Assembly: GCA_904502095.1 (NCBI GenBank)
Contig: CAJGDG010000001.1
Span: 2,242-66,241, forward strand
Reading direction: 5' to 3'
From: an uncultured Alphaproteobacteria bacterium
GTDB taxonomy: Bacteria > Pseudomonadota > Alphaproteobacteria > Rs-D84
Length of the DNA: 64,000 nucleotides
Shown: in pieces, positions 1 to 40,000 of the stretch
Numbering within the stretch: the first letter of the stretch is position 1
Layout of the letters: every line of letters starts with the position of its first letter
The notes under the pieces: model-generated
Database searches by the model: none
The model's input: the letters and a program-made list of their open reading frames with translations, nothing else
Told to the model about the DNA's origin: nothing
Program-made: the position numbers and the translations under genes

Positions 1-1392
1 ACCGCTTGTTATTCTTCCGCTTATGGTGAAGATACTCAGGCTCAAGAAGATTATATTTATTCTGTTGCACAAGGTTTAATCCTAAATGTCGATAATGAAA
101 TGCTGGCTCAATGCCAAAAGGCTGCTAATGAAGCTATGATTAAAGTGTGTGGCAGTACAGAAAGCTGTGATGCAATGACAATCGCAGATGGTGTTGGCGC
201 ACATGCATTGGAATACAAGATATGTGAATATGCAGTAGGAACTGAAGGCGAATATGCTTTTTCAAATTGTAAACAAGACATGAATCTGATTATGGACGAG
301 GATTTGTTAGGAACGGTTAAATATGAGCCCGGGGAGATGTTTGAAAATACATTAAATTTTGAAAATCGTTCTGATTATGAAGGTGATATAGAAAAACTGA
401 TTGAAGATGCATCAAAGGCGGTTAATGGGAATAAACGGAGTCGTTTGTATGCCGCAGCAAATAAATTAGAAGAATTAAAAGCATCGGAAGTTGGTAAGTT
501 GAAACAGGACCCGTTGAAATTTAAATATAGAGCATATGAAGGTTATAAACTGTTTGCAGGTGTGTTGGATGGTGTTATTGCATGGAATAAAATAAATGTT
601 TCAATGCAAGACGTTTGCCCGTATAAAATTCCAGCTGTGGATACAGATGGTAAAGAAGTAGAAGAAAAGCAAGAATCGTCTGGTGTTATGAAGTTGTGCA
701 TATCTGGTATTGAAGATGCGGCACTGACAGTGAATGCTGGTCAGAATGAGGCAACAAAACAGGATCAAATCTTGTCAGATTTGGGTGCGTTAAAAAATTC
801 TATTAATAATACAATATATGCGATTGAATCAGACCCAACTGTTCAATTCTGTATGACAGGTCGCAAGGTACAAGGACTGAAAATGGGCAAGGATGGTGCG
901 GCTGAACGGACCGAGGCTCGCTTCCCAGGACTGATTGATTCAATGAAGGTAGTTATTGCACAGTCTGCGGTACAAAAGGCCCAGGCAAACTATAATAAAA
1001 AGTATGCGGAATTAGATGAAAAATTGCGCAAGAATAATGTGGCATTGGCGGAACGTATTGCCAAGGTGCGAGAAGAACGAGAAAGCGCCGATAGAACAGA
1101 GATTGCTGCACGTTCTTGTTTGTCGATGGGGACAAATTCAACATTGCCAGTGCAAACAGGTACAGATAATGCAGAATTACAATCTGCCCAGGGTTATACT
1201 GCGACGAGCAAGAATGATGGGGCGGAATATCGTGAAGTTATTACAACAACGTTTAATCCAACAACGCTGGTTTGTAAGAAGTGTACAGTATCGCAAGATT
1301 GCGCAAAGCTAAAAAGGAAAAACAGCAAGAAAAATAAGCATTGTGTTGATTGGGAAGACCCGGTTGAAAAATGTACAGAAACACAATTTTAA
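1..1392 (+). CDS. 3' portion of a large cysteine-rich secreted protein (paralog P1). Its 5' end lies upstream of the window.
   Basis: Frame 1 is open from base 1, with no stop before the first Met at 100. The product matches the C-terminal halves of the 1371..4292 and 21049..23529 products: an ARFP...NYNKKY segment, paired Cys, and a terminal 4-Cys module (..TTFNP..LVCKKC.VS.DC......C.DWED...KCTETQF). Confidence 0.7.
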   Translation, partial: TACYSSAYGEDTQAQEDYIYSVAQGLILNVDNEMLAQCQKAANEAMIKVCGSTESCDAMTIADGVGAHALEYKICEYAVGTEGEYAFSNCKQDMNLIMDEDLLGTVKYEPGEMFENTLNFENRSDYEGDIEKLIEDASKAVNGNKRSRLYAAANKLEELKASEVGKLKQDPLKFKYRAYEGYKLFAGVLDGVIAWNKINVSMQDVCPYKIPAVDTDGKEVEEKQESSGVMKLCISGIEDAALTVNAGQNEATKQDQILSDLGALKNSINNTIYAIESDPTVQFCMTGRKVQGLKMGKDGAAERTEARFPGLIDSMKVVIAQSAVQKAQANYNKKYAELDEKLRKNNVALAERIAKVREERESADRTEIAARSCLSMGTNSTLPVQTGTDNAELQSAQGYTATSKNDGAEYREVITTTFNPTTLVCKKCTVSQDCAKLKRKNSKKNKHCVDWEDPVEKCTETQF

Positions 1393-4292
1393 TAATGCGT
1401 GTTATTGGTAAATGTTTTTTAATTGTTTTGGCTGTTTGCACCGTCTGGATTGACGGTGCATTTTGTGCAACTGTACGACGGGGTGGGGCGGCGCAATCAT
1501 CTGCGCCGAAAACGACGGCTGCGCGTGCGGCGACCAATTCGCGTACTGCGCCAAAGACGGCAACAACCGCAACAAAAACAGGTGGTCGGACAACTGCGGC
1601 GCGCAGTGGGGTGCCCGCATCGTCTGCGGCCCCCAAGGCGCCGGTTGTTTCAGCCCGTGCAGCTGCAACACAAAAGGTTATTGGTACAGGGACCAAGGTT
1701 GCAGGTGCAACAGAAAATACTGCTGTGGGGTCCGATTGTCAAAATTTGTATAATGCATGTATGGATGCGTTTTGCATTGTTGATAATGTTGATGGCGGCA
1801 GATGCGCATGCAGTGATAAATATAAATCATTTGAAGCATTGTTAACCCAGGTTGATGATTTGAACAATCAAGCGTATAAAATATCGACTGTTGGGATGGA
1901 ATCAGTTGAATCTGTTGTCACAAAAGACGCTGCGTTGCAAGTTGGTAAAATTTCTAATTTGCAAAAAACAGATTTACAAAAAGCGTGGGAAAACGGCGAT
2001 GTTGGTGGTGCCTTGCGCAAAACGGCAATTGATGCCTGTGCGGCAAAATTGCCACAATGTGCGAACGAATTGACCATTTTATCGGGGATGTATTCCGGAA
2101 AAATAAATGGCGATTGTGTTGCGTATGAAAACAGTATAAAAAAGTTGCTGGCTGATGCAAAAGCGCGTTTGAATCAGGCCGAAGTAGATTTGCGCTCGTC
2201 CGCGCTGGATGTGGCAAAAAATGCAAACAAATATGATTTGGGTCAATGTACAATCAAATTCCGTGAATGTATGCAGACAACTGCGGAATGTGGGGCTGAT
2301 TTTACGGGGTGTGTTGATACGACCGAGCAAACAAAATCCAGAATCAAAAAAACACAGGCCGAAGAAATTTTTGTTATTCCAAACACAACCGCAAAATTAA
2401 CGATATCGAAATCAATGTATGATTTATTGATGGCTAAATCAGTTGTTTGTTCGTCTGTATTGGATAATTGCGTTGCCGTTCGTGATTCTGTTTTTGATGC
2501 TTTTCTGCGCGAATCAGCGCCATTGTTGACAATTGCAGAAAATTTGGCGGAATCAAATGCACGCCAAAATTGTATTACCAAGGTTTCTGACTGTTTTCAA
2601 AATGCCTGCCGTGATAACATAGGCCCTGATGATAAAGATGCGTCTTATGATGCGTGTTTGACGCGTCCTGAAACAATGTTGTCCTTTTGTAAAGTCGAAT
2701 TGGACGCGTGTGGTGTTGATACCAGTTCCGCAGCCCAGGCAAAAAAGTCTGAAATATGGGATTATGTTTTGGCCAAGTTGGCTGCGTTAAAGGTTGATGC
2801 CTGTACCGAAGATTTAAAAGATTGCTTAACAGATGAAAGCAGATGTGGCGCAGATTATTCGAATTGCGTGGGATTAAGCACAGAACAAATTATCAGGATG
2901 TGTCCGTATGACAAATTGACAGGCTGCAAAAATGTGTATGATAACGAATTGACTTCGGACCAGGTATACGAAAATTTGACCAATGTTGTCCAGGGTATAA
3001 TATTAAATATTGACAACGAGTTGCTGGCGGTTTGTCAGGCGGCGGTCGATAACGCGGCGGTTCGTGCGTGTGGTGAAAATCTAGATTGTGGAAATTTGAT
3101 AAATTTGGATACCATTGGCACAACATCGCTGGATTATAAAATATGCGCGTACCAGACAGTGGGCCAAGATGTCGCGTTTACAGACTATTGTCATCGTGAT
3201 GTTTCATTGATTCCGGATTCGCATCTGGGACGGGTAGAGGGATCGACCACAGGTGAATTGGGACCGGTTGTTCCGTATGCGGCGTTGTTAGATGTTCCTA
3301 TTTTCTGGGAATCTATCAGTGTTGGGCTGGATGGAAAATTTGTTGGTATTGATAATTACTTGTCAAAGTTGGAAGAAAGAAAAATTGTTATTACAGATGC
3401 ACAAAAAGAACGTTTGATGAACGAGCTGAATACATTTAAATCTGGATTGGATAATGTAATTCAGATAATTGAAAATGATACAGATGTTGATGCGTGCATG
3501 AACGGAAAAAAATTACAGGGGTATGGTTCAAAGAAAATTGCACGATTCCCAAATATTACGCAAAGCACGCGTATGTTAATTGCAGGGAAAATGTTGAACC
3601 GGGCCAAGGAAAATTATTATGCAAAATATGATGAATATAATACGCGTCAATTAAAAGATTATATCGCCATTACTGAACGTCAGGTGAAAATCAGGGGTGA
3701 AAATTTCAAAGATAAACATCGTGAATTGGCGCGGCAAAGTTGTGTCAGTTTGGCAGAAATGTCTGCTATGCCTAAAACGAAAGAACCACCGTCTAGTGTG
3801 CTTGGTGGAATATTGATAGGAATCATTTTGGCGGCGGCGGTTGTTGCTACATGTGTAATGACATTTGGAGCGGGTGCTGTTGCTTGGGCGGAACTTGGTG
3901 TGGCGATGGCGGCTAATTTGGCTGTTTCACAAATAAGTGGGATAGCTGCTGCTGGTATTGCTGGGGCTGTGGCTGTTGCGACTGGTGGTGCCGCGGGCGT
4001 TGTTGCAGCGGGATTGGCGATAAATGATGCGGTTCAGGGCAAAGATGTGTATATTAAATCTTCTGAGTCAACAGGAACTACACAAGAGACAACAAACACT
4101 GGGTCGCACAGTATAAAACATTGGAATTACAAGGAAGACATTACAACTATATTTAATCCAATTGATTTAACATGTGAAAAATGTGTTGTTTCAACCCACT
4201 GTAAAAAAACCAAGGCACCAATGTTTGGGGATCAGTATTGTTTGGAATGGGAAGAATCTTTGCCAAAAAGATGCACCACAATTGAGTTTTAG
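1371..4292 (+). CDS. Large cysteine-rich secreted protein (paralog P2, 973 aa). Alternative start at 1395.
   Basis: Signal-peptide-like N-terminus (..CFLIVLAVCTVWIDGAFCA). An Ala/Thr/Arg/Lys-rich low-complexity linker follows. The N-terminal module is GSDCQNLYNACMDAFC..GGRCACS. Cys pairs recur through the body. About 55% local identity to the 21049..23529 product (VLDNCVAVRDSVFDAFLRESAP.. versus VLNSCVAVRDQVWPAFLREAAP..). A Gly/Ala-rich glycine-zipper hydrophobic segment is present (GGILIGIILAAAVVAT...GIAAAGIAGAVAVATGGAAGVVAAG). The protein ends in a 4-Cys module. Confidence 0.8.
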   Translation: MYRNTILIMRVIGKCFLIVLAVCTVWIDGAFCATVRRGGAAQSSAPKTTAARAATNSRTAPKTATTATKTGGRTTAARSGVPASSAAPKAPVVSARAAATQKVIGTGTKVAGATENTAVGSDCQNLYNACMDAFCIVDNVDGGRCACSDKYKSFEALLTQVDDLNNQAYKISTVGMESVESVVTKDAALQVGKISNLQKTDLQKAWENGDVGGALRKTAIDACAAKLPQCANELTILSGMYSGKINGDCVAYENSIKKLLADAKARLNQAEVDLRSSALDVAKNANKYDLGQCTIKFRECMQTTAECGADFTGCVDTTEQTKSRIKKTQAEEIFVIPNTTAKLTISKSMYDLLMAKSVVCSSVLDNCVAVRDSVFDAFLRESAPLLTIAENLAESNARQNCITKVSDCFQNACRDNIGPDDKDASYDACLTRPETMLSFCKVELDACGVDTSSAAQAKKSEIWDYVLAKLAALKVDACTEDLKDCLTDESRCGADYSNCVGLSTEQIIRMCPYDKLTGCKNVYDNELTSDQVYENLTNVVQGIILNIDNELLAVCQAAVDNAAVRACGENLDCGNLINLDTIGTTSLDYKICAYQTVGQDVAFTDYCHRDVSLIPDSHLGRVEGSTTGELGPVVPYAALLDVPIFWESISVGLDGKFVGIDNYLSKLEERKIVITDAQKERLMNELNTFKSGLDNVIQIIENDTDVDACMNGKKLQGYGSKKIARFPNITQSTRMLIAGKMLNRAKENYYAKYDEYNTRQLKDYIAITERQVKIRGENFKDKHRELARQSCVSLAEMSAMPKTKEPPSSVLGGILIGIILAAAVVATCVMTFGAGAVAWAELGVAMAANLAVSQISGIAAAGIAGAVAVATGGAAGVVAAGLAINDAVQGKDVYIKSSESTGTTQETTNTGSHSIKHWNYKEDITTIFNPIDLTCEKCVVSTHCKKTKAPMFGDQYCLEWEESLPKRCTTIEF

Positions 4293-4340
4293 CATATAAA
4301 ATGGCGGCTTTCGTTATCGCCGGGAAAGCGGCCCCAGAAT

Positions 4341-4710
4341 GACAATTTTTTTTGTTAAAAAAAATTGTCATCCTGGTACTTGATACCAGGACCCAGGTTA
4401 TTAATGCAAATTTGTGTTCGCGTTGCGAACATAGACCTAGGTTCCACGGTCAAGCCGTGGAATGACAGAGTTTTTTGTTTGTTTACCTAGGTTCCACAGG
4501 TCACCCGTGGAATGACAGAGTTTTTAAGTTTTTTTACAAAAAAAATTTTAAAACTATATATGTAAAGTTCTCATCTGTCATCCTGGTACTTGATACCAGG
4601 ACCCAGGTTATTAATGCAAATTTGTGTTCGCGTTGCGAACATAGACCTAGGTTCCACGGTCAAGCCGTGGAATGACAGAGTTTTTAAGTTTTTTTACAAA
4701 AAATTTTTTA
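4341..4710. repeat. Array of palindromic hairpin-rich repeats, RPE/MITE-like. Two near-identical ~115-bp copies plus partial copies.
   Basis: Unit copies at about 4367-4480 and about 4576-4690: tgtcatcctggtacttgataccaggaccc...tgttcgcgttgcgaaca...ttccacggtcaagccgtggaatgacagag. Each unit carries three internal hairpins and imperfect terminal inverted repeats (ctgtcatcc / ggaatgacag). A partial 3' copy sits at about 4486-4530. An upstream hairpin tgacaatttttttt/aaaaaaaattgtca lies at about 4341-4370. Confidence 0.7.
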
Positions 4711-4726
4711 ATTTAAATTTGTGATG

Positions 4727-4987
4727 TTATTTTTTGCTTTTCTTTTTATCGGTTTTGGCGCCCAATATTTGAATTTGCATTTTTAAGATGATGTTTTCTT
4801 TTTCTTTGATTTGTTCCAGTAATCGTTCGTTTTCACTGCGCAATTTTGCCAATTCTTGACGGCTGATTGTCGTTTCACGGGTTATTTGACGGGTGCGTTT
4901 GCGATTTAAAAAAAATGCAAATGTCGCGCCAATAACTGCGCCAATTGTTGCGCTGATTACATCAAAAAGTGTGTCAACTAATGCCAT
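4727..4987 (-). CDS. Small basic membrane/coiled-coil protein, hypothetical
   Basis: ORF trimmed to Met at 4987 (MALVDTLFDVISATIGAVIGATFAFF...). It has an N-terminal hydrophobic helix with a GxxxG motif, then a Lys/Glu-rich coiled-coil tail. Confidence 0.45.
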   Translation of the reverse strand: MALVDTLFDVISATIGAVIGATFAFFLNRKRTRQITRETTISRQELAKLRSENERLLEQIKEKENIILKMQIQILGAKTDKKKSKK

Positions 4988-5022
4988 GTGACACACTGTA
5001 TCAATTTATAATGATGGTTGCA

Positions 5023-18899: not shown

Positions 18900-21026
18900 A
18901 TGAGTTTAAGATTTTTTGCAATGTTATTGGTTTTATTCCCAACAGTTGCGCTGTCCGCAACTCGTGGTGATAATGCGCGGGTTGGGGCGATGCGTGCGTC
19001 CGGGGCGCGTGGGGGCGTTGCTGCAAATGCTGCAGCGGCAAATGCTGCGGCTGCGGCAAAAACACAATCGGCCGCGGCGGCAAAAACGGCGGCACCTGCG
19101 ACAGAAGATTCTGTGGAGGTAGAGGCAACGGCCAAGGCGCCAGCGTCAAGTGGCGATTGTCGTGAAGCGTATCGTGCGTGTATGGATGAATTTTGCTTGT
19201 TGGATGAATCCGAGGGGTATCGTTGTGCGTGCTCTTCTAATATAAATGCGTCTAAGTCTTTGATTAAGGAAGTTCAACAAATTCAAGAAGAAGCGGACAA
19301 ATTGTATACAGAAGGTGTCGAACGCGAACAGTTGGGCGCCAAGGCTGCGATTATATTTGGTGAAAGTGATGCCGCCAAGAAAAGTTCGCGTGCTTCTGGC
19401 TTAAGTTTTGCAGAATGGTTAAACAGTGGTTCTGGCGATGGATCCTTGGATGCGGATGAAGATATTGGTGATGGCTTGTATTCTATGGCCGCGGAATATT
19501 GTCAGGCTGAACTGGATGCGTGTGGTGACAAAGCCGAAATGGAAGAAATGTTGTATAGTCGTCAGGTTATCGCAGACTGTAAGGCGTTTACTGTGTATTT
19601 GGATGATCAAAAAAGAAATGCACTGGCGAACAAGCGTATGGCCGAATCGGCTGTGCGTCAGGCGCGTTTGGAAATGTTTGATACGACCAATAAATACAAT
19701 GCGGGTGAATGCTTGATTGCGTTTCGTGCGTGTGTTGCGGACAAGGGTGGTTGTGGCACGAATTTTGAAAACTGTTTAGATAAGGATTTGTTGACGCGTC
19801 GTTCCAAGGCGTGCGAAAATGTGTTGGATCAATGTATGGCGGTAAGAAAGTTGGTGCAACAAGATTGGGAAGAAGAGTCCGAATCGATTTTGGCAGAGGC
19901 TGAAAAATATGCAGATAAATATCGTCGTCAAACTTGTTTGGCGCAAATTCAGGTTTGTTTGGAAGATGGGTGTTCGACATCAACTAATTCTGCGTGCTTG
20001 ACTGATGTCAGGGTGGCCGCGGGTGTTTGTCCTATTATTGATGAATGTAATGAAATGATACCGGGGATAAAGTCTGTTATTAATGACAAGTTGGGGTATC
20101 TGCGTTTGCAGTTCTGTCAAAATGATGTGGATGCGTGTTTGCGCGACAAATGTGGTCAGAATTTTACTGCGCCGGAATGTCTTGGGAAAAATACATCTGA
20201 AATTGTTGCGATGTGTCCGCAAGATATGTTCCCGTCATGCAAAAATGAAACACAATATGATGTTATTGTTAGTGCTGCATTGTTGCAGATGGATTATCAG
20301 ATGATGCAGGGCTGTATGAATCATTTCAGTGAACAGTTGGGCAAAACTTGCGGTACAGATATGGCGTGCCTGCCGACTAGTGCGATTGTATCTGCTTTGT
20401 CCGATTTGCCAGAAGATGAAGCAGGGATGATAGAGTTGCGTGCAAATGTTATTGCAGAATCAAAGACGGCGGTGGATGAATTCTTTAAGCAGTTCGAAAA
20501 GGATAAAACTGTTGCTGCGTGCGCGGATGCAGAAAAACCAAGTGGTCGCAGCAGTTTGGGCGCAAATATCTTTAATACAGCAAAGATAATTGCTGAAATT
20601 GGCGCTGAAAATCGTGCGATTCGTGCATTGGAAGAAAAAATTACAGAAATATCACGCAAAAAGGATGTAAAAGAAGCGGAAGAACTGTGTTTGTCGACTT
20701 ACAAGGTCGAATCGCCAAGTCAGTCAAAGAAAAATTATAGTTATATAAAGAGTGTTTCTTTTGAGCCAAGTTTGCGTAATTGTCATGTTTGTCGTGTACA
20801 ACAGGTTTGTGAAACAGGTGGAGAATCTAAGGCTTCTTCGGCATTAAAGGCTGCGTCTGGCGGTTTGTCTGCTGGGGCGGCGGCAGGTACCATGGTTACA
20901 CCAGGTTGGGGCACTGCAATTGGTGGGGTTGTTGGTGCTGTTGGAGCTGGTGTAATGGGATATATGTCTGGCGGGGAAAAAGAATTCTGTCAGGAAATAT
21001 CAAGCTGTGAAGATATAAATATGTAA
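18900..21026 (+). CDS. Large cysteine-rich secreted protein (P7). Start trimmed to Met 18900.
   Basis: RBS GGTGGAGA. Signal peptide MSLRFFAMLLVLFPTVALSA. Ala-rich linker (AANAAAANAAAAAKTQSAAAAKTAAP). Module SGDCREAYRACMDEFCLLDESEGYRCACSS. Motif KYNAGECLIAFRACVADKGGCGTNFENC shared with P2 and P8. C-terminal glycine zipper AAAGTMVTPGWGTAIGGVVGAVGAGVMGYMSGG. Terminal Cys motif. Confidence 0.8.
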   Translation: MSLRFFAMLLVLFPTVALSATRGDNARVGAMRASGARGGVAANAAAANAAAAAKTQSAAAAKTAAPATEDSVEVEATAKAPASSGDCREAYRACMDEFCLLDESEGYRCACSSNINASKSLIKEVQQIQEEADKLYTEGVEREQLGAKAAIIFGESDAAKKSSRASGLSFAEWLNSGSGDGSLDADEDIGDGLYSMAAEYCQAELDACGDKAEMEEMLYSRQVIADCKAFTVYLDDQKRNALANKRMAESAVRQARLEMFDTTNKYNAGECLIAFRACVADKGGCGTNFENCLDKDLLTRRSKACENVLDQCMAVRKLVQQDWEEESESILAEAEKYADKYRRQTCLAQIQVCLEDGCSTSTNSACLTDVRVAAGVCPIIDECNEMIPGIKSVINDKLGYLRLQFCQNDVDACLRDKCGQNFTAPECLGKNTSEIVAMCPQDMFPSCKNETQYDVIVSAALLQMDYQMMQGCMNHFSEQLGKTCGTDMACLPTSAIVSALSDLPEDEAGMIELRANVIAESKTAVDEFFKQFEKDKTVAACADAEKPSGRSSLGANIFNTAKIIAEIGAENRAIRALEEKITEISRKKDVKEAEELCLSTYKVESPSQSKKNYSYIKSVSFEPSLRNCHVCRVQQVCETGGESKASSALKAASGGLSAGAAAGTMVTPGWGTAIGGVVGAVGAGVMGYMSGGEKEFCQEISSCEDINM

Positions 21027-21048
21027 TTTATAAAAATGGGACGGAGAG

Positions 21049-23529
21049 ATGGTCTTTAAAAAATTATCTTTGTTGTGTGCTTTTGTAATTGCAATCTCGG
21101 GATTGCACAGTGATGCGTTAGCGGCTGTTTCGAAAAAGAAGGAATCGAAACAGTCTGCAATTCAAACCGGGACCAAGGTTCGTACCAAGGTTGAAGTGTC
21201 TGGTTTGTACGACCAGGAATGTTATGATGCGTATTATGGATGTATGGACCAGTTTTGTATTGCCGATAATGAAAATGGTGGCAGTTGCGCATGCAGTGAT
21301 TTAAATGCAAAATATGAAAAAGATTTAGAAGATATAAAAAATATATTGGAAGAAGCGGAACGTATCAGAACGGTTGAAGTAGAAAAAGTTCAGGCTGGGG
21401 CGAATGTAGATATCATTTTTGGTGCCGGCGAGCGTCAATATGATGAAGATGGCAATATTGTAGATTTAGAAGATCGTGAGGATAAAAAATCTGAAATGTT
21501 GGCTTTGTGGAATTCGTCTTTTGATGAAGAAGATGAAGAAGAGGTGGACATATCGGAATTATCGGGAAATGAATTGTATGTTGCTGCAAATGATTTGTGT
21601 CGCGAACAAATTCCAGATAAGTGCGAAACAGATTTTAATTTCTTGGTTCAGGTTTACAAACGTCAAATTGTATCCGATTGCAAAGGTTTTGAAAACAGTA
21701 TTACCAAAAAACGTGGCGAAGCAGAAGCAGCATTGGCAAGTGCAGAAGCTGAGGTTCGTGGCGCATTAAAAGAATCTTTGAACGAAGCAAACAAGTATGA
21801 TTTGGGTACTTGTATGGTTGAATTTAAAAAATGTATGAAAACTGAAGACGCCTGTGGTTCTGATTGGTCGGGTTGCGTTTCGACAATTGCTGATGCTAAT
21901 ATGCAGGGAATTGACGAATCTGCGGTATTTAAAGATGAAAATATGAAAAAGTCTGCGCAAAAGGCGTATGATGGCAGCACATACGGTATTGCTGCGTCGA
22001 CAATGGAAGGATTGGATTCCAAGCGTATAATTTGTGAACGTGTTTTGAATTCTTGTGTTGCGGTTCGTGACCAAGTTTGGCCGGCGTTTTTGCGTGAAGC
22101 GGCGCCGTCAATCAAAGTCGCAGAAACTCTGATTGAATCAAAGATGCGCCAATCTTGTTTGACTGATATTTCAGATTGTATCCAAAAAGCCTGTCGTGAC
22201 GATATTGCGGGTAAGGGCGAGGATACGATGGATGCGTGTTTGGCACGTCCAGAAATGGCACGCAGTTTCTGTAAGATTGAAATTGAAAGATGTGAAAAAA
22301 TGGAACCGCAAATCTGGGCGTATGTGACAGATAAATTAAAGGCAATGCGTGTCGATGTTTGTACCCAGGAAGTAAAAGATTGCTTTACAGCAGATACACG
22401 TTGTGGCGCAAATTTCCAAAACTGTATCGGTATGGATTATGACTATATCCACGATATGTGCCCAATTGATTCATTGGTTGTTTGTAAACAAGGTAATCCA
22501 GGGTTTTCAATGGATGATTTGGATTCTATGTTGATGGGGTTGTATTTGAATATTGATAATTCTGCACTGGATCAATGTCAGGCAACGGTGGACGATTTTA
22601 TGACAGAAATGTGCGGCAGTACATCAGATTGTAATCGTTTTGCAGCTGATGATATTTTAGGAACTGGCAGTATTCGTTCCCAGAAAAATGGACAAAAATA
22701 TATTGTGACCGGTATGATTTCGTTCGGTTCAATCGAAATTGGTAAGGCTGGAACAGATCAGGCGGGTCGGATTAATGTACAGGGGTATATCAAATCATTA
22801 TATGAAAAATATGGTTTGGCACCAGGTTCGACATCTGATAATGCAAATATTATTTTAACGATTGAAGAAGAGTTGAATAATATTGCAGGTACAATTAATC
22901 GGGCAATTGATATGCTGGAATCAAATGAAAAAGTTAAATGGTGTGTCAAAGGTCGCGATTTGACAAATATTACGGGTGATGACGAAATGACCGAAGCGCG
23001 TTTCCCACGTATGTTGGATCAATATAAAGTTCAAATTGCTGTTTCGGCTTTAAGTAAAGCGCAACAGAACTATAATAAAAAGTTGACTGCTGAAATCAGT
23101 AAAGCAACCAAGGATGCGTCTGCTGATATCGCAGAATATATGTGTCATAAAATAGGGGCGACTGGGAATGTGTCGACATCTAATTCGGGTACTTTTGCGA
23201 CAGATACAGAACTGGCAGAACCGTTGGCGATTAAATATGAGGTTGCAGCAGGCCTAAAAACGAGCGAGCTGACACAAAATGGTACCAGCTCAGAAAACTA
23301 TGGCGGTCAAGAATTTAAAAACAAGAAGGGTGAAGTTGTTGCAAAGGCCGGCGGTTCCAGACGCGATGTGTCCGCGATCTTCTCGCGCGAGACAAGAATG
23401 TGTCATGTATGCACAACAATACATATTGAAACATGTAATGTAGAAAAGAAAGGCTTGAACGCAAGAAAGGTTAATACAGAATGTACCCCGACAGTTCAAG
23501 GGCCGACATGCGAAGACATACCAATGTAA
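21049..23529 (+). CDS. Large cysteine-rich secreted protein (P8, 826 aa)
   Basis: RBS GGAGAG. Signal peptide MVFKKLSLLCAFVIAISGLHSDALA. Module DQECYDAYYGCMDQFCIADNENGGSCACSD. Long collinear similarity to P2 (KYDLGTCMVEFKKCMKTEDACGSDWSGCV versus KYDLGQCTIKFRECMQTTAECGADFTGCV; EARFP..NYNKK). Acidic stretch SFDEEDEEEVD. Terminal Cys module. Confidence 0.85.
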   Translation: MVFKKLSLLCAFVIAISGLHSDALAAVSKKKESKQSAIQTGTKVRTKVEVSGLYDQECYDAYYGCMDQFCIADNENGGSCACSDLNAKYEKDLEDIKNILEEAERIRTVEVEKVQAGANVDIIFGAGERQYDEDGNIVDLEDREDKKSEMLALWNSSFDEEDEEEVDISELSGNELYVAANDLCREQIPDKCETDFNFLVQVYKRQIVSDCKGFENSITKKRGEAEAALASAEAEVRGALKESLNEANKYDLGTCMVEFKKCMKTEDACGSDWSGCVSTIADANMQGIDESAVFKDENMKKSAQKAYDGSTYGIAASTMEGLDSKRIICERVLNSCVAVRDQVWPAFLREAAPSIKVAETLIESKMRQSCLTDISDCIQKACRDDIAGKGEDTMDACLARPEMARSFCKIEIERCEKMEPQIWAYVTDKLKAMRVDVCTQEVKDCFTADTRCGANFQNCIGMDYDYIHDMCPIDSLVVCKQGNPGFSMDDLDSMLMGLYLNIDNSALDQCQATVDDFMTEMCGSTSDCNRFAADDILGTGSIRSQKNGQKYIVTGMISFGSIEIGKAGTDQAGRINVQGYIKSLYEKYGLAPGSTSDNANIILTIEEELNNIAGTINRAIDMLESNEKVKWCVKGRDLTNITGDDEMTEARFPRMLDQYKVQIAVSALSKAQQNYNKKLTAEISKATKDASADIAEYMCHKIGATGNVSTSNSGTFATDTELAEPLAIKYEVAAGLKTSELTQNGTSSENYGGQEFKNKKGEVVAKAGGSRRDVSAIFSRETRMCHVCTTIHIETCNVEKKGLNARKVNTECTPTVQGPTCEDIPM

Positions 23530-31813: not shown

Positions 31814-31870
31814 TATAATACGCGGTGCTTGGGGCATAGTTTAATGGTAGAACTCCGGACTCTGACTCCA
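31814..31870 (+). pseudogene. Truncated duplicate of the tRNA-Gln promoter (-10) plus the tRNA 5' half through the anticodon loop
   Basis: tataatacgcggtgcttggggcatagtttaatggtagaactccggactctgactcc versus 35015..35071 tataatccgcggtgcttggggcatagtttaacggtagaactccggactctgactcc (2 mismatches). The sequence diverges after the anticodon stem. No T-arm or acceptor 3' strand follows. Confidence 0.75.
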
Positions 31871-34991: not shown

Positions 34992-35020
34992 TTGCATTGA
35001 AAATAAAAAAGCCTTATAAT
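34992..35020 (+). promoter_or_regulatory. tRNA-Gln promoter
   Basis: TTGCAT-17 nt-TATAAT, ending 10 nt before the tRNA 5' end. Confidence 0.65.
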
Positions 35021-35030
35021 CCGCGGTGCT

Positions 35031-35104
35031 TGGGGCATAGTTTAACGGTAGAACTCCGGACTCTGACTCCGTCGGTGTTGGTTCGAATCCAGCTGCCCCA
35101 ACCA
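35031..35104 (+). tRNA. tRNA-Gln (anticodon CUG)
   Basis: Cloverleaf. Acceptor TGGGGCA/TGCCCCA with U1-A72 as in bacterial tRNA-Gln. D-stem GTTT/GAAC. Anticodon loop CTCTGAC. T-arm GTTGG-TTCGAAT-CCAGC. Discriminator A. Encoded CCA. Confidence 0.85.
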
Positions 35105-37022: not shown

Positions 37023-40000
37023 ATGTCTTGCCCAAAGAATTTATCTGATTTGTTAAAGGTTTGCAGTGTTTTGCCTGTGTTCGCGGTTTTGCCTGCGATG
37101 GCGGAATCGGTGACCGGCCGTCAAGTGATTACAACAGATACGTCTTATACAGATTTGGTGGCGCAAAACATTGCGTCAACAACAGCGAATAATGGCGGTG
37201 TGTTTTATATGCAAGATGTGCCAGATGTTTCTTTGACATTTAATGGCGCGACATTGTTTTCTGGAAATTCTTTGAATAATGGTGGTATGGGTGGCGCGAT
37301 TGGTAATGGGTGGCTGTCTTCTTTGACCGGTTCTGGATATACCCAGGGTGGCAAGATAACTTTTGCCGGGGCATCAACTTTTGTTAATAACAGCACCAAT
37401 AACGCAAATGGTGGCGGGGCAATATTTAACTATGGATTGGGCGATGCAAAATCCCCGGATATTGTTTTTAACGGTGACGCCAAATTTGATGGAAACAAGG
37501 TGACAAAATCTTCAAACAGTGTTTTTTCTGGTGGTGGGGCGATTAATCATCGTGACGGTATGATTGTTTTTAATGCCGGTGCAAGTTTTACAGGGAATCA
37601 GTCTGCCAGCCAGGGCGGGGCAATTATGTCTGCTGGTGATGTTGCGTTCAAATCAGATGCGTCGTTTGATAATAACAGCGCAACAAAAAATGGTGGTGCG
37701 CTGGCGATATTGGGCGGAAATGCGACTTTTGAAAAAGGGGCAATTTTTACCAATAATAATGCAGGTGGCGCATCTGCGGTTTATATCGCCCAGGCAACAG
37801 ATATGGTCAAGTTTAATGGCGCAGCAAGTTTTGTTGAAAATACGGGTGTTGGCACATTGTTAAACAGTGCAACAAATGCGACGGTTTTGTTCGCAGATGG
37901 TGTTGCGTTTGATAAAAACACAAATAAGTCTAATGGCGCGCTGGTAAATGCGGGAAGTGTGCTGTTAACCGGTGGTGATATGTTGTTTTCAAATAACATT
38001 GGTACTAATGGTGGCGGACTGAAAAATTCAGGGAATGTTAGTGTAAACACGGTTGGAAATGTGTTGTTCGATTCAAATAGTACGGCTAGCAGTGCTGGTG
38101 CATTTGATAACGGTGGAACAGTACAGTTTGTTGCGCCCAATATTGTGTTTACAGGGAACAAGTCTGATGCAGGATACGGTGGCGCAATCTTTAATTCCGG
38201 CGATTTAACAATTGGGGGCGCGGTAAATACTTTTGATAATAATATCGCGGCGGATATTGGCGCAACCAAAAGTGGTGGTGGTGCAATACATAATCGCGGT
38301 AATACCAATACAACCACTTTGATTATTGGTGAACGGGGCAGTATTAATACTTTTACTGCAAATAAATCCAGTGCGCATGGTGGTGCAATTGTGGCGCGGG
38401 CTTTTGATGGAGCGACCGCAAATTCAGAAGTTGTTATAAATGGAGCGACAACTTTTGCTGATAACACAGCGGATATGAACGGTGGCGCAATTTGGAATGT
38501 GGCAATGCCCAAAGGAGACACAATTGGTAAAACTTCAATTGTGTTTAATGGTGATACTGTTTTTCGCGGCAATTCTGCAAATGGATTTGGGGGCGCGTTA
38601 TACAATAATGATACCGTTGAATTTAATGGAAAAATTGCTTTTTCAGGAAACAGTGCGGGCGAAAATGGTGGGGCGATTTATAATGCCGGTACATTAGAAA
38701 TCAATGGCGGTGAATTTATTGGTAATTTCGCAAAAAAATCTGCCGGTGCGATTTATAATGGCGATGGTGGTTCTTTGATAGTTGATGGGGCGACTTTTAC
38801 AGAAAATAAGTCGGCTGGTTCTTTTGGTGCGGTTGTGTCGGGTACTGGTGCTGTAAAGACAGAGATTTCAAACACCGTATTTCGCGATAATTCAGCAGGT
38901 GATGTGGGTGCGTTGGGGTTGTTTTCTGGGGCAACACTGACAAATGTCACATTTGATGATAACGAGTCTGCTTTACGCGGTGGCGCAATTTCAACACTCG
39001 GTGCAGACATTGCTGATAACAAAGATGCGCGTTTGGATATCTTGAAATCAAATTTTGTTGAAAATGAAGCAAAAACAACAGGTGGCGCAATCGATAATTA
39101 TCTGTACAGCAGTGTCAAAGATATGACGGCGGTTTATATTGCGGATACTGCGTTTTCAAAAAATCTGGCAACGGCGGGTGGCGCAATTTATAACCATGGT
39201 GATGCAGACAAATCAGGAAATATTGCGTCAATGCGTTTGGAAAATGTGAACTTTACCGGGAACAAGGCCAGCGATAAAGGTGGGGCCGTTTATAACGAAG
39301 CGGGCGCCGGTATCGTTTTAAGTGGTAAAAACATCTTTTTGGGTAATGCAGCAGGAAAATCCAAGAACGATATTTATAATGATGGCGCAATAAAAATTGA
39401 AGGTGGCGAAACATCTATCAGTGGTGGTATTTTGGGCGATGGCGTTTTGGATATTGCCAGTGGTGCAGTATTAAATATCGGGACTGCTACGGTTAATCAA
39501 TCTTTGATAAACATTGATGGAACGATTAATGCGTCTGTTTTAAACAGCAATGTTCGTGATAATGGAAAATTGTTTGGTGAAATAACAGGGTCGGGCGTAA
39601 TTAATTTGGATGTTTCTTCGGTTGGAACTTATAATATATTCAGCGAAGATAACGACATCACAATAAATGTAGGCAAAGCGTATTTGGTCGAAAACCGTGG
39701 TGCAGATGGGGTCGTTGTTTCGACAAAGCCAATCGATACCTTGGTTAAAGATACGGGCGTTTCGGAATCGGCTGCGGCTACATTGGTTGGCTTGGCAAAT
39801 TCAACGGATAAAAATGTCCAAAGAATTTCACTGTTGGCACAGCAGGCGTTGAATTCTGGCAAAACAGATGTTTTGGAAAAAGAATCTGCAAAATTGAATC
39901 CTGATGACAATGTTGTTGTTCAGTCTGTTGCGACCGCAACGCATAACCAGGTGTTGTCGTTGGCGGCGGGGCGTATGGCTGGCGGTGCATCACAGGCGTT

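Follow-up and report, generated by a model that had tools for sequence, protein, structure and literature searches.

A probable mosaic array of Ssn-related hairpin motifs in an uncultured gut alphaproteobacterium close to Candidatus Enterousia

The 64,000-nucleotide stretch of DNA analysed here (the window) comes from an uncultured alphaproteobacterium (GenBank assembly GCA_904502095.1, contig CAJGDG010000001.1, positions 2,242 to 66,241) and is part of contig k141_1004475 (141 kb) of ENA assembly ERZ27234997. At positions 4331–4711 it carries an array of palindromic repeats that a preliminary description had compared with Rickettsia palindromic elements (RPEs) and with miniature inverted-repeat elements (MITEs). 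Our analysis makes it probable that this region is a mosaic array of Ssn-related motifs (SRMs), hairpin repeats like the Neisseria Transformation Sequence (NTS) and dRS3, and that it forms part of the NTS/SRM–Ssn system.

The array matches the published Ssn-related motif

The first description of Ssn nucleases dates from 2025 (Chenal et al., Nat Commun 2025; PMC11893778). That study defined the NTS, CGTCATTCCCGCGMAVGCGGGAATCYRG, which contains the older dRS3 repeat, and, as the general form of NTS-like repeats, the degenerate SRM pattern HGTCWYN(0-2)YYVSBRHN(0-5)WNVSBRGN(0-2)RNCYNB. SsnA, a single-domain GIY-YIG protein of 94 aa, binds the hairpin as single-stranded DNA (ssDNA) only and cuts a few nucleotides upstream, and is inactive on the complementary strand, on duplex DNA and on RNA. 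The GTC before the palindrome is crucial for cleavage and the C after it for binding, while the loop is dispensable in Neisseria; activity of the N. meningitidis enzyme was abolished by changing the stem sequence with the hairpin kept, and also by mutation of Y6, Y17 and E64. According to the same study ssn genes typically have SRMs on both sides, a Wolbachia Ssn cuts the Wolbachia SRM, symbionts are over-represented among species with more than 300 SRMs, and the Neisseria system limits integration of transforming DNA (PMC11893778).

The published pattern has four matches in the 64 kb of the window, two on each strand and all in the array (Table 1), against a mean of 0.04 in 50 order-1 Markov random sequences of the same composition. 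These half-sites follow one strand-specific plan (T-GTCAT, 7-bp stem, loop CTTGA, return stem, ACCYAG) and have both the GTC before and the C after the palindrome. All three of the hairpins named in the preliminary description are present in the repeated unit. The first has the loop CTTGA and the third its reverse complement, TCAAG, so both ends of the unit represent one motif of about 31 nt on opposite strands. The ends had earlier been described as 9-bp terminal inverted repeats; they are indeed inverted, but they extend over the full ~31 nt and each is a hairpin-bearing motif. A stem common elsewhere in the species, CCTGTGG, misses the pattern at one S position, which suggests that the published pattern is slightly too strict for this lineage. 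We also tried a looser half-site detector, for which the chance expectation in the window is 1.1 (maximum 4); its four additional matches (28932, 47197, 49565 and 63019) have 6-bp mismatched stems and long loops and were rejected as noise.

A search of the window with Rfam at gathering thresholds returned two tRNAs only. At relaxed thresholds the best resemblance was to RF02625 WsnRNA46 (Wolbachia sRNA 46; E = 0.01), whose consensus of about 150 nt shares with the window element the inverted layout GUCAU-hairpin-AUCCAG ... CUGGAU-hairpin-AUGAC. The two copies, however, score 25.0 and 16.5 bits, far below the gathering threshold of 65.3 for membership in this RNA family, and the window element is known here from DNA sequence alone. 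Relaxed-threshold matches to snoRNA and miRNA families were located on an A/T palindrome and were treated as noise.

Selection acts on the hairpin

The hairpin of the SRM-type motif is under selection. To guard against circularity, the sites for covariation analysis were picked by anchors only (GTCAT, N7, CTTGA, N7, RNCY) with the stem unconstrained, which gave 441 sites with 164 distinct sequences and 65 distinct stem pairs, and one representative was scored for each stem pair. Among these 65 stem variants standard pairs fill 90.3% of pair cells, compared with 63.2% in shuffles, and changes on both sides are found at all seven of the seven stem pairs (138 cells). Shuffled data give a covariation score of 0.262, and none of 500 shuffles reaches the 0.747 of the real stems; in controls with the partner slid by one to three columns the score is at most 0.14. 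Strong covariation of the stem is to be expected if a folded single strand is recognised, but not if a protein binds an unvarying duplex. In this lineage the loop CTTGA shows strong conservation as well, but its degree is overstated because the scans selected for that loop.

The unit folds as a four-way junction, with a closing stem TGTCAT/ATGACA and three hairpins, on either strand and as RNA or DNA, with z-scores between −5.4 and −6.5 relative to shuffled sequence across strands and RNA/DNA; the values are −45.3 kcal/mol (z = −5.6) as RNA and −25.3 kcal/mol (z = −6.3) as DNA. As ssDNA the SRM motifs fold with −6.8 to −9.1 kcal/mol.

The family is dispersed and almost wholly extragenic

Beyond the array the 64-kb window holds no further copies. 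On the window's contig there is a second locus, upstream of rpoA, with a full copy whose first stem is CCTGTGG/CCACAGG instead of CCTGGTA/TACCAGG, that is with three base pairs altered in both arms, and the pieces that we fetched from the same species hold at least ten separate arrays. We assign the JAEIGA01 contigs to this species on the strength of one that matches the window's contig at 99.1% identity. The possibility that the unit occurs only here is thus refuted, since the family is dispersed on the contig, in the species and in many genomes.

A 20-mer within the R-type motif at 4437–4467 recurs on two contigs of a viral collection and on 100 metagenome contigs that vary widely in base composition, and these loci share a common layout of GTCAT, a variable hairpin and ATCCAG, then a short spacer, then CTGGAT, a hairpin and ATGAC. 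When 69 distinct environmental sites were chosen by their right-half sequence alone, an inverted GTCAT-hairpin-RNCY partner was found no more than 212 nt upstream in 37, whereas the control, downstream, gave 2 of 69. Species-representative genomes scanned with a degenerate motif yielded at least 113 stretches, mostly from Ca. Enterousia genomes; nearly all belong to metagenome-assembled genomes (MAGs) from the gut that carry the label "Candidatus Enterousia" or "Alphaproteobacteria bacterium", with goat, human, rabbit, deer and chicken as hosts among the listed matches, and some relatives are labelled "Rickettsiales". NCBI places "Candidatus Enterousia" in Alphaproteobacteria incertae sedis. 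Genes of the window share 70–88% nucleotide identity with Enterousia-group genomes and, judged by such comparisons, the host is a gut alphaproteobacterium close to "Candidatus Enterousia". The exact 21-mer CCGTGGAATGACAGAGTTTTT was not found in the reference-genome scan, so that the source species is evidently not present with that exact flank among the species representatives, and the host lineage probably lay outside the RefSeq reference/representative survey of PMC11893778.

Only 5 of 294 motifs lie at least 150 nt inside an open frame of at least 150 aa, though such frames cover about 79% of the bases, and the five frames concerned are short and doubtful. Motifs situated almost wholly outside genes are like REP/BIME and NIME repeats and unlike RPEs, and the in-frame insertion into open reading frames (ORFs) to be looked for in an RPE-like family is not borne out. 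Nor did any of 49 pair elements have a target-site duplication, which the preliminary description had proposed to look for: their flanks tend to inverted, not direct, repeats, and all that is conserved at their borders is TT directly before GTCAT, AA directly after ATGAC and a general A/T richness. The fetched JAEIGA01 loci include none orthologous to the window array that might have shown a clean empty site.

The host encodes a predicted Ssn-type nuclease

A hidden Markov model was trained on environmental GIY-YIG ORFs that directly adjoin the motif, and it detected related ORFs beside SRMs in many loci. At one of these, L032, a window-type element stands beside an ssn-type gene whose product matches the Pfam GIY-YIG domain PF01541 (residues 3–77 of 98, E = 1e-16). 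Homology search and inspection of cluster members identified a second protein, P0122, of 98 aa and 98% identical to the L032 protein, and its gene is on ERZ27234997:k141_500183, which is from the window's own sample but is not the window's contig. The PF01541 assignment of the P0122 gene is a precomputed record, the direct Pfam scan being that of the L032 protein. By residue numbering only, Y7, Y18 and E65 of P0122 lie one position beyond Y6, Y17 and E64 of SsnA. Its homologues are named "GIY-YIG nuclease family protein" in the source databases, NCBIfam holds no model for the Ssn protein, and the PDB yielded only weak UPF0213 relatives (5e-5). P0122 is a predicted Ssn-type single-domain GIY-YIG nuclease of the class of about 94–100 aa, and a candidate member of the Ssn family of CDD (cd10448, GIY-YIG_unchar_3).

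Its gene has two sense-strand SRMs just upstream and a 560-nt array downstream. The contig k141_500183 is 99.4% identical to JAEIGA010000453, which in turn matches the window's contig at its end with 99.1% identity, and this bridge together with the shared sample argues that the window's organism encodes Ssn. The likeness to the NTS/SRM system of Neisseria (SsnA, dRS3, NIME) thus extends over the degenerate motif, the GTCAT before and C after the palindrome, the strand-oriented hairpin, the many extragenic copies in mosaic arrays, the SRM-ssn-SRM arrangement and the single-domain GIY-YIG protein of about 98 aa. The lineage of the window differs from Neisseria NTS in its stems and loop (CTTGA), in its dominant unit, which is a tight inverted pair with a 30–49-nt spacer that in this species has its own hairpin, and in its hosts, which are uncultured gut Alphaproteobacteria known from MAGs.

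Several observations weigh against assigning the array to a working SRM–Ssn system. The link between the window and the ssn contig rests on a bridging contig from another assembly, and that bridge implies a rearrangement or a mis-join at repeats. In another sample of the same species ssn is missing at the rarA locus, which suggests that some strains may lack the nuclease and hold the array perhaps as a relic. Stems of at least two types, CCTGKGG and TCCACGG, are found side by side in a single genome, and two or three types even bracket the same ssn gene (L150); since N. meningitidis SsnA lost activity on a change of stem, a single Ssn may not recognise both types. Finally, in L228 the SRM that immediately precedes ssn has an imperfect stem, with one mismatch and one wobble.

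Alternative explanations

A classical MITE, that is a non-autonomous derivative of a DDE insertion sequence moved by cut-and-paste via its terminal inverted repeats, would be short, dispersed and multi-copy, with inverted ends such as TGTCAT...ATGACA and with assemblies that break inside it. The MITE-like outline given in the preliminary description, inverted ends around a short spacer in dispersed copies, therefore stands, but we regard a MITE origin as very unlikely. The flanks of the pair elements, none of which has a target-site duplication, are symmetric in the inverted sense, and covarying stems with a fixed loop and fixed flanks would be unexpected for double-stranded binding sites of a transposase. 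No transposase gene is bracketed by the motifs, whose sole recurrent cargo is a GIY-YIG gene of about 100 aa, and solo half-sites and same-orientation tandems are common. An RPE or a direct relative of one appears just as improbable. RPEs are likewise palindromic dispersed repeats of 100–150 nt from alphaproteobacterial hosts, and the ~100–120-nt size, the similar palindromic fold and the relatives labelled "Rickettsiales" would suit them; their hallmark, however, is in-frame insertion into protein-coding genes, whereas the motifs of the window's family are almost never found deep inside open frames. In the literature searched, no paper links RPEs to GIY-YIG proteins. Rickettsia is itself among the SRM-rich genomes (PMC11893778), so some RPE families may contain SRMs.

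The least probable reading is a REP/REPIN system moved by a RAYT, an IS200/IS605-type tyrosine transposase, with BIME-like mosaics. REP, BIME and REPIN repeats with their RAYTs in E. coli and Pseudomonas do share much with our family (extragenic hairpins with a conserved short 5' box, inverted doublets, mosaic clusters, recognition of ssDNA and a small flanked cognate gene), but the REP box is GTAG or GTGG and not GTCAT, the bracketed gene encodes a GIY-YIG nuclease and not an HUH/Y1 transposase, and no cargo of the size of a Y1 transposase recurs between convergent motifs. A locally duplicated terminator cluster, or a small structured RNA gene, with no link to a nuclease is marginally less improbable than any of these, though still unlikely. 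It would account for an array set between two convergent 3' ends, for strong hairpins beside T and A runs, for one terminator-like site (minus strand, 4392–4370), for the weak resemblance to the Wolbachia sRNA and for two copies that are local duplicates. The terminator scan is, however, at chance level (one site against 1.2 in shuffled sequence), GACAGAG separates the T runs from the stems, and ordinary terminators in the window look different (AAAAACCGCCAATTGGCGGTTTTTT; repeat family D1). Such a cluster also leaves unexplained the GTCAT/ACCYAG flanks, the strand-specific pairing, the ssn link and the presence of copies upstream of rpoA and other genes. The hairpins and T/A runs may nonetheless have a side role as terminators of the two convergent genes. 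Taken together, the comparisons favour an SRM array over the RPE-like reading of the preliminary description.

The SRM-ssn-SRM unit and its relation to the short pairs

We surveyed 764 kb of Enterousia-group loci, which contain 375 half-sites; since the presence of one or more half-sites was the ground for choosing a locus, these figures give no estimate of density. The commonest arrangement is, as in the window, a convergent pair with a 30–49-nt spacer (48 cases), and a second class has a spacer of about 340–350 nt that holds the ssn gene. By spacer length the adjacent convergent pairs number 56 below 100 nt, 8 at 100–199 nt and 9 at 300–399 nt, and among all of them no other cargo size recurs between convergent SRMs. 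SRMs were found on both sides of 11 of the 18 fetched Enterousia-group ssn ORFs, in the sense strand just 5' of the start codon and inverted after the stop (loci with this arrangement include L032, L106, L113, L114, L139, L150, L159 and L182); for the others, most of which are on short contigs, an SRM was detected on one side only. The SRM-ssn-SRM unit is about 400 bp long, with conserved ends TTGTCAT...ATGACAA in at least six species. In three environmental loci (L048, L065 and L076) the repeat overlaps the 3' end of the gene, and the last nine or so ssn codons (…SGFPGQAVE, then stop) are encoded by the SRM hairpin.

At the rarA locus two strains with 97% identical flanks differ in that one has SRM-ssn-array and the other only a leader remnant and mosaic modules, and in the window's sample ssn adjoins a different gene than at the rarA locus. 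Presence and absence of ssn and its shifted loci are consistent with a unit that moved or was lost, but they would also result from recombination between arrays. A likeness of the ssn unit to an insertion sequence was raised, as a hypothesis only, in PMC11893778. The unit of about 400 bp might be an autonomous mobile element whose sole protein is the GIY-YIG ssDNA nuclease, with the ~100-nt pairs as its non-autonomous, MITE-like derivatives; this reading draws on the conserved ends in at least six species, on ssn at different loci in near-identical strains, on the leader-only rarA strain, on short pairs that begin with the leader-like GGTTATKWATGC and on the lack of another cargo class, and we consider it tentative and rather doubtful. 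If true, the SRM-ssn-SRM unit would be a new kind of insertion sequence.

The surroundings of a gene for a 411-aa protein differ between assemblies: JAEIGA01 has the order rpoA, array, 411-aa gene, while ERZ27234997 has an 862-aa gene, ssn, array and the 411-aa gene (L228 10648–11625, L047, L001 17694–19725). These conflicting arrangements reflect either recombination between SRM arrays of different strains or a chimeric join at repeats.

Anatomy and history of the array

The features of the array are collected in Table 1. They fill nearly all of the 434-nt intergenic stretch between the stops of a 973-aa gene on the plus strand and a small gene on the minus strand. Repeat detection finds two 119-nt copies, A (4366–4484) and B (4576–4694), 210 nt apart, the size of a copy being about 105–119 nt. 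Two copies had thus been recognised correctly, but they are 97% and not fully identical. The partial 3' copy and the end remnant of the preliminary description are likewise present. The 3' module occurs three times in all, its third copy lying at about 4485–4551, and the period-50 repeat that Tandem Repeats Finder reports at 4435–4537 corresponds to the same 3' modules. The ends TGTCATCC and GGAATGACA are inverted repeats of each other. Across the T8-GTT-A8 palindrome the remnant GAATGACAA (4337–4345) and the start of copy A form a 20-nt inverted repeat (pair I1); similar T/A palindromes border many copies elsewhere. Read as its reverse complement, the whole remnant is identical to the first 15 nt of an intact variant, TTGTCATTCTGGGGCTTGACCCCAGAACCCAGG, at L228 7063–7095.

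Table 1. Features of the SRM array and its flanking genes (positions in the window)
Feature	Position	Strand	Basis and remarks
Upstream flanking gene (P2), 973 aa	1371–4292	+	ORF list; no Pfam domain; 3' end towards array; context only
Truncated SRM remnant, 15 nt	4331–4345	−	Reverse complement TTGTCATTCTGGGGC has GTCAT box and left stem arm only
A/T palindrome T8-GTT-A8, linker module	4346–4364	.	Inverted repeat I1; DNA fold −15.2 kcal/mol, z = −6.6
SRM half-site, copy A, L-type, TGTCAT-CCTGGTA-CTTGA-TACCAGG-ACCCAG	4366–4396	+	Published SRM pattern; ssDNA hairpin −7.4 kcal/mol
Central hairpin, copy A, TGTTCGC-GTT-GCGAACA	4415–4431	.	Folds; within 40-nt spacer 4397–4436
SRM half-site, copy A, R-type	4437–4467	−	Published SRM pattern; ssDNA hairpin −9.1 kcal/mol, z = −4.6
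Degenerate R-type half-site (partial 3' copy)	4487–4517	−	Stem TCCACGGG/CCTGTGGA, one mismatch; loop TGA
Linker module GAGTTTTTAAGTTTTTTTACAAAAAAAATTTTAAAACTATATATGTAAAGTTCTCATC	4518–4575	.	Near-identical linker in L229; also L009, L021, L080, L102
SRM half-site, copy B, L-type	4576–4606	+	Identical to that of copy A; published SRM pattern
Central hairpin, copy B	4625–4641	.	Sequence, repeat detection, fold
SRM half-site, copy B, R-type	4647–4677	−	Published SRM pattern
Right-hand A/T-rich linker GAGTTTTTAAGTTTTTTTACAAAAAATTTTTTAA	4678–4711	.	Repeat of 4518–4551 (repeat families D2, D4)
Downstream flanking small ORF, 86 aa as called in assembly	4727–4996	−	3' end towards array; context only

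Read on the minus strand, the R-type half-site of copy A is TGTCAT-TCCACGG-CTTGA-CCGTGGA-ACCTAG. The first dozen bases of the spacer in copy A, GGTTATTAATGC, resemble the ssn leader GGTTATGTATGC. By hand check the degenerate half-site falls outside the published SRM pattern by one position, and the composite of a full element with such a degenerate half-site variant is also present in L011, L017, L023, L032 and L033. Three independent assemblies break within the window array or the sister array, which is to be expected of a repeat with many copies. These breaks and the convergent 3' ends on either side are the observations that bear on the position at the boundary of an accessory cluster suggested in the preliminary description.

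The stem CCTGGTA/TACCAGG is found only in copies A and B among the 441 motifs, the rest of the species having CCTGTGG/CCACAGG, and this private compensated stem points to local duplication or gene conversion and not to two independent arrivals. The recent duplication envisaged in the preliminary description is thereby supported. In L229 a linker with few base differences from 4518–4575 connects an R-type half-site with the SRM in front of ssn. The recurrence of modules 4487–4517 and 4518–4575 at other arrays makes the window array a mosaic of common modules, like the NIMEs of Neisseria. In L003, from a strain that is 95.5% identical, an R-type motif occupies the same position beside the small gene, so that at least this edge of the array predates the split of the two strains.

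Other repeats and neighbouring genes

A second palindromic family, CCTGCACTACGAAG...CTTCGTAGTGCAGG with variants such as CTACTTCGCCAAGGCTTCGTAG, repeatedly adjoins SRM arrays in the species and its relatives (L001 at about 19455–19510, L032 at 917–950, the 3' end of L229 and flanks in L139 and L192). In freshwater-sediment contigs (Ga0315xxx) an SRM pair of about 75 nt lies within a larger repeat that has outer inverted repeats of its own, TTACTAATGCGGTCATTAGTAAGG ... CTTACTTATGAACTCCTTAGTAA (L014, L018, L031, L038, L040, L041, L045, L046, L049 and others), and in this lineage the pair thus appears nested in a second layer of repeats. Two IMG/VR contigs classified as viral (L104 and L105) carry an SRM pair with the same right half, and true phage DNA and misclassified bacterial DNA are both possible.

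Elsewhere in the window, positions 31814–31869 and 35015–35070 form a 56-nt direct repeat (96% identical) that covers 16 nt upstream and the first ~40 nt of tRNA-Gln(CTG). The intact tRNA-Gln is at 35031–35104; the upstream partial copy, 3.2 kb before it, is not called as a tRNA and so has the look of a 5' duplicate that was cut short, perhaps a scar left by an insertion or a duplication. Five copies of a coding repeat of about 43 nt, spaced at multiples of about 102 nt, lie at 38349–39093 and encode F-x-x-N ... G-G-A-I, resembling the passenger-domain repeats of polymorphic membrane proteins or autotransporters. Such Pmp-like GGAI repeats might have hinted at Chlamydiae, a reading that we rejected in view of the nucleotide matches to Enterousia genomes. 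A Pfam scan of the large proteins beside the array (100–4292 and 19000–23000 of the window) found no domain. DNA segments of the large proteins beside the array and of a gene about 19.5 kb downstream are 74–88% identical to each other (1734–1835 with 21217–21318; 2793–2856 with 22351–22414), which indicates a lineage-specific paralogous family.

Proposed mechanism and significance

If the array is an SRM array of the NTS/SRM–Ssn kind, its element of about 100 nt would be an inverted pair of SRMs, one for each strand, separated by a 40-nt spacer that forms a hairpin as well. Whenever a strand is exposed as ssDNA, in replication, repair or DNA uptake, its motif would fold into a 7–8-bp hairpin with GTCAT on its 5' side and ACCYAG on its 3' side. 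By analogy with the enzymes of Neisseria and Wolbachia, the Ssn of about 98 aa would bind GTCAT, hairpin and C and nick the strand a few nucleotides before GTCAT, with no action on double-stranded DNA or on RNA, so that an inverted pair would offer one cleavable site whichever strand is exposed. Recombination, gene conversion or local duplication would enlarge the arrays, in the way that copies A and B appear to have arisen, and the short pairs would be non-autonomous relatives of the ~400-bp SRM-ssn-SRM unit. A cellular role in limiting incoming ssDNA or in shaping recombination is suggested by the Neisseria system only.

The locus would extend the SRM/Ssn system to abundant uncultured gut Alphaproteobacteria, Ca. 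Enterousia and its relatives. Contigs of these genomes often end within a few hundred bases of the motifs, and SRM arrays would explain these contig ends. P0122 and the 31-nt motifs form a defined candidate enzyme–substrate pair for a new ssDNA-cutting specificity, and the natural variation in this group, with ssn present or absent, with coexisting stem types and with compensated stems, bears on whether a nuclease together with its repeats may be mobile as a unit.

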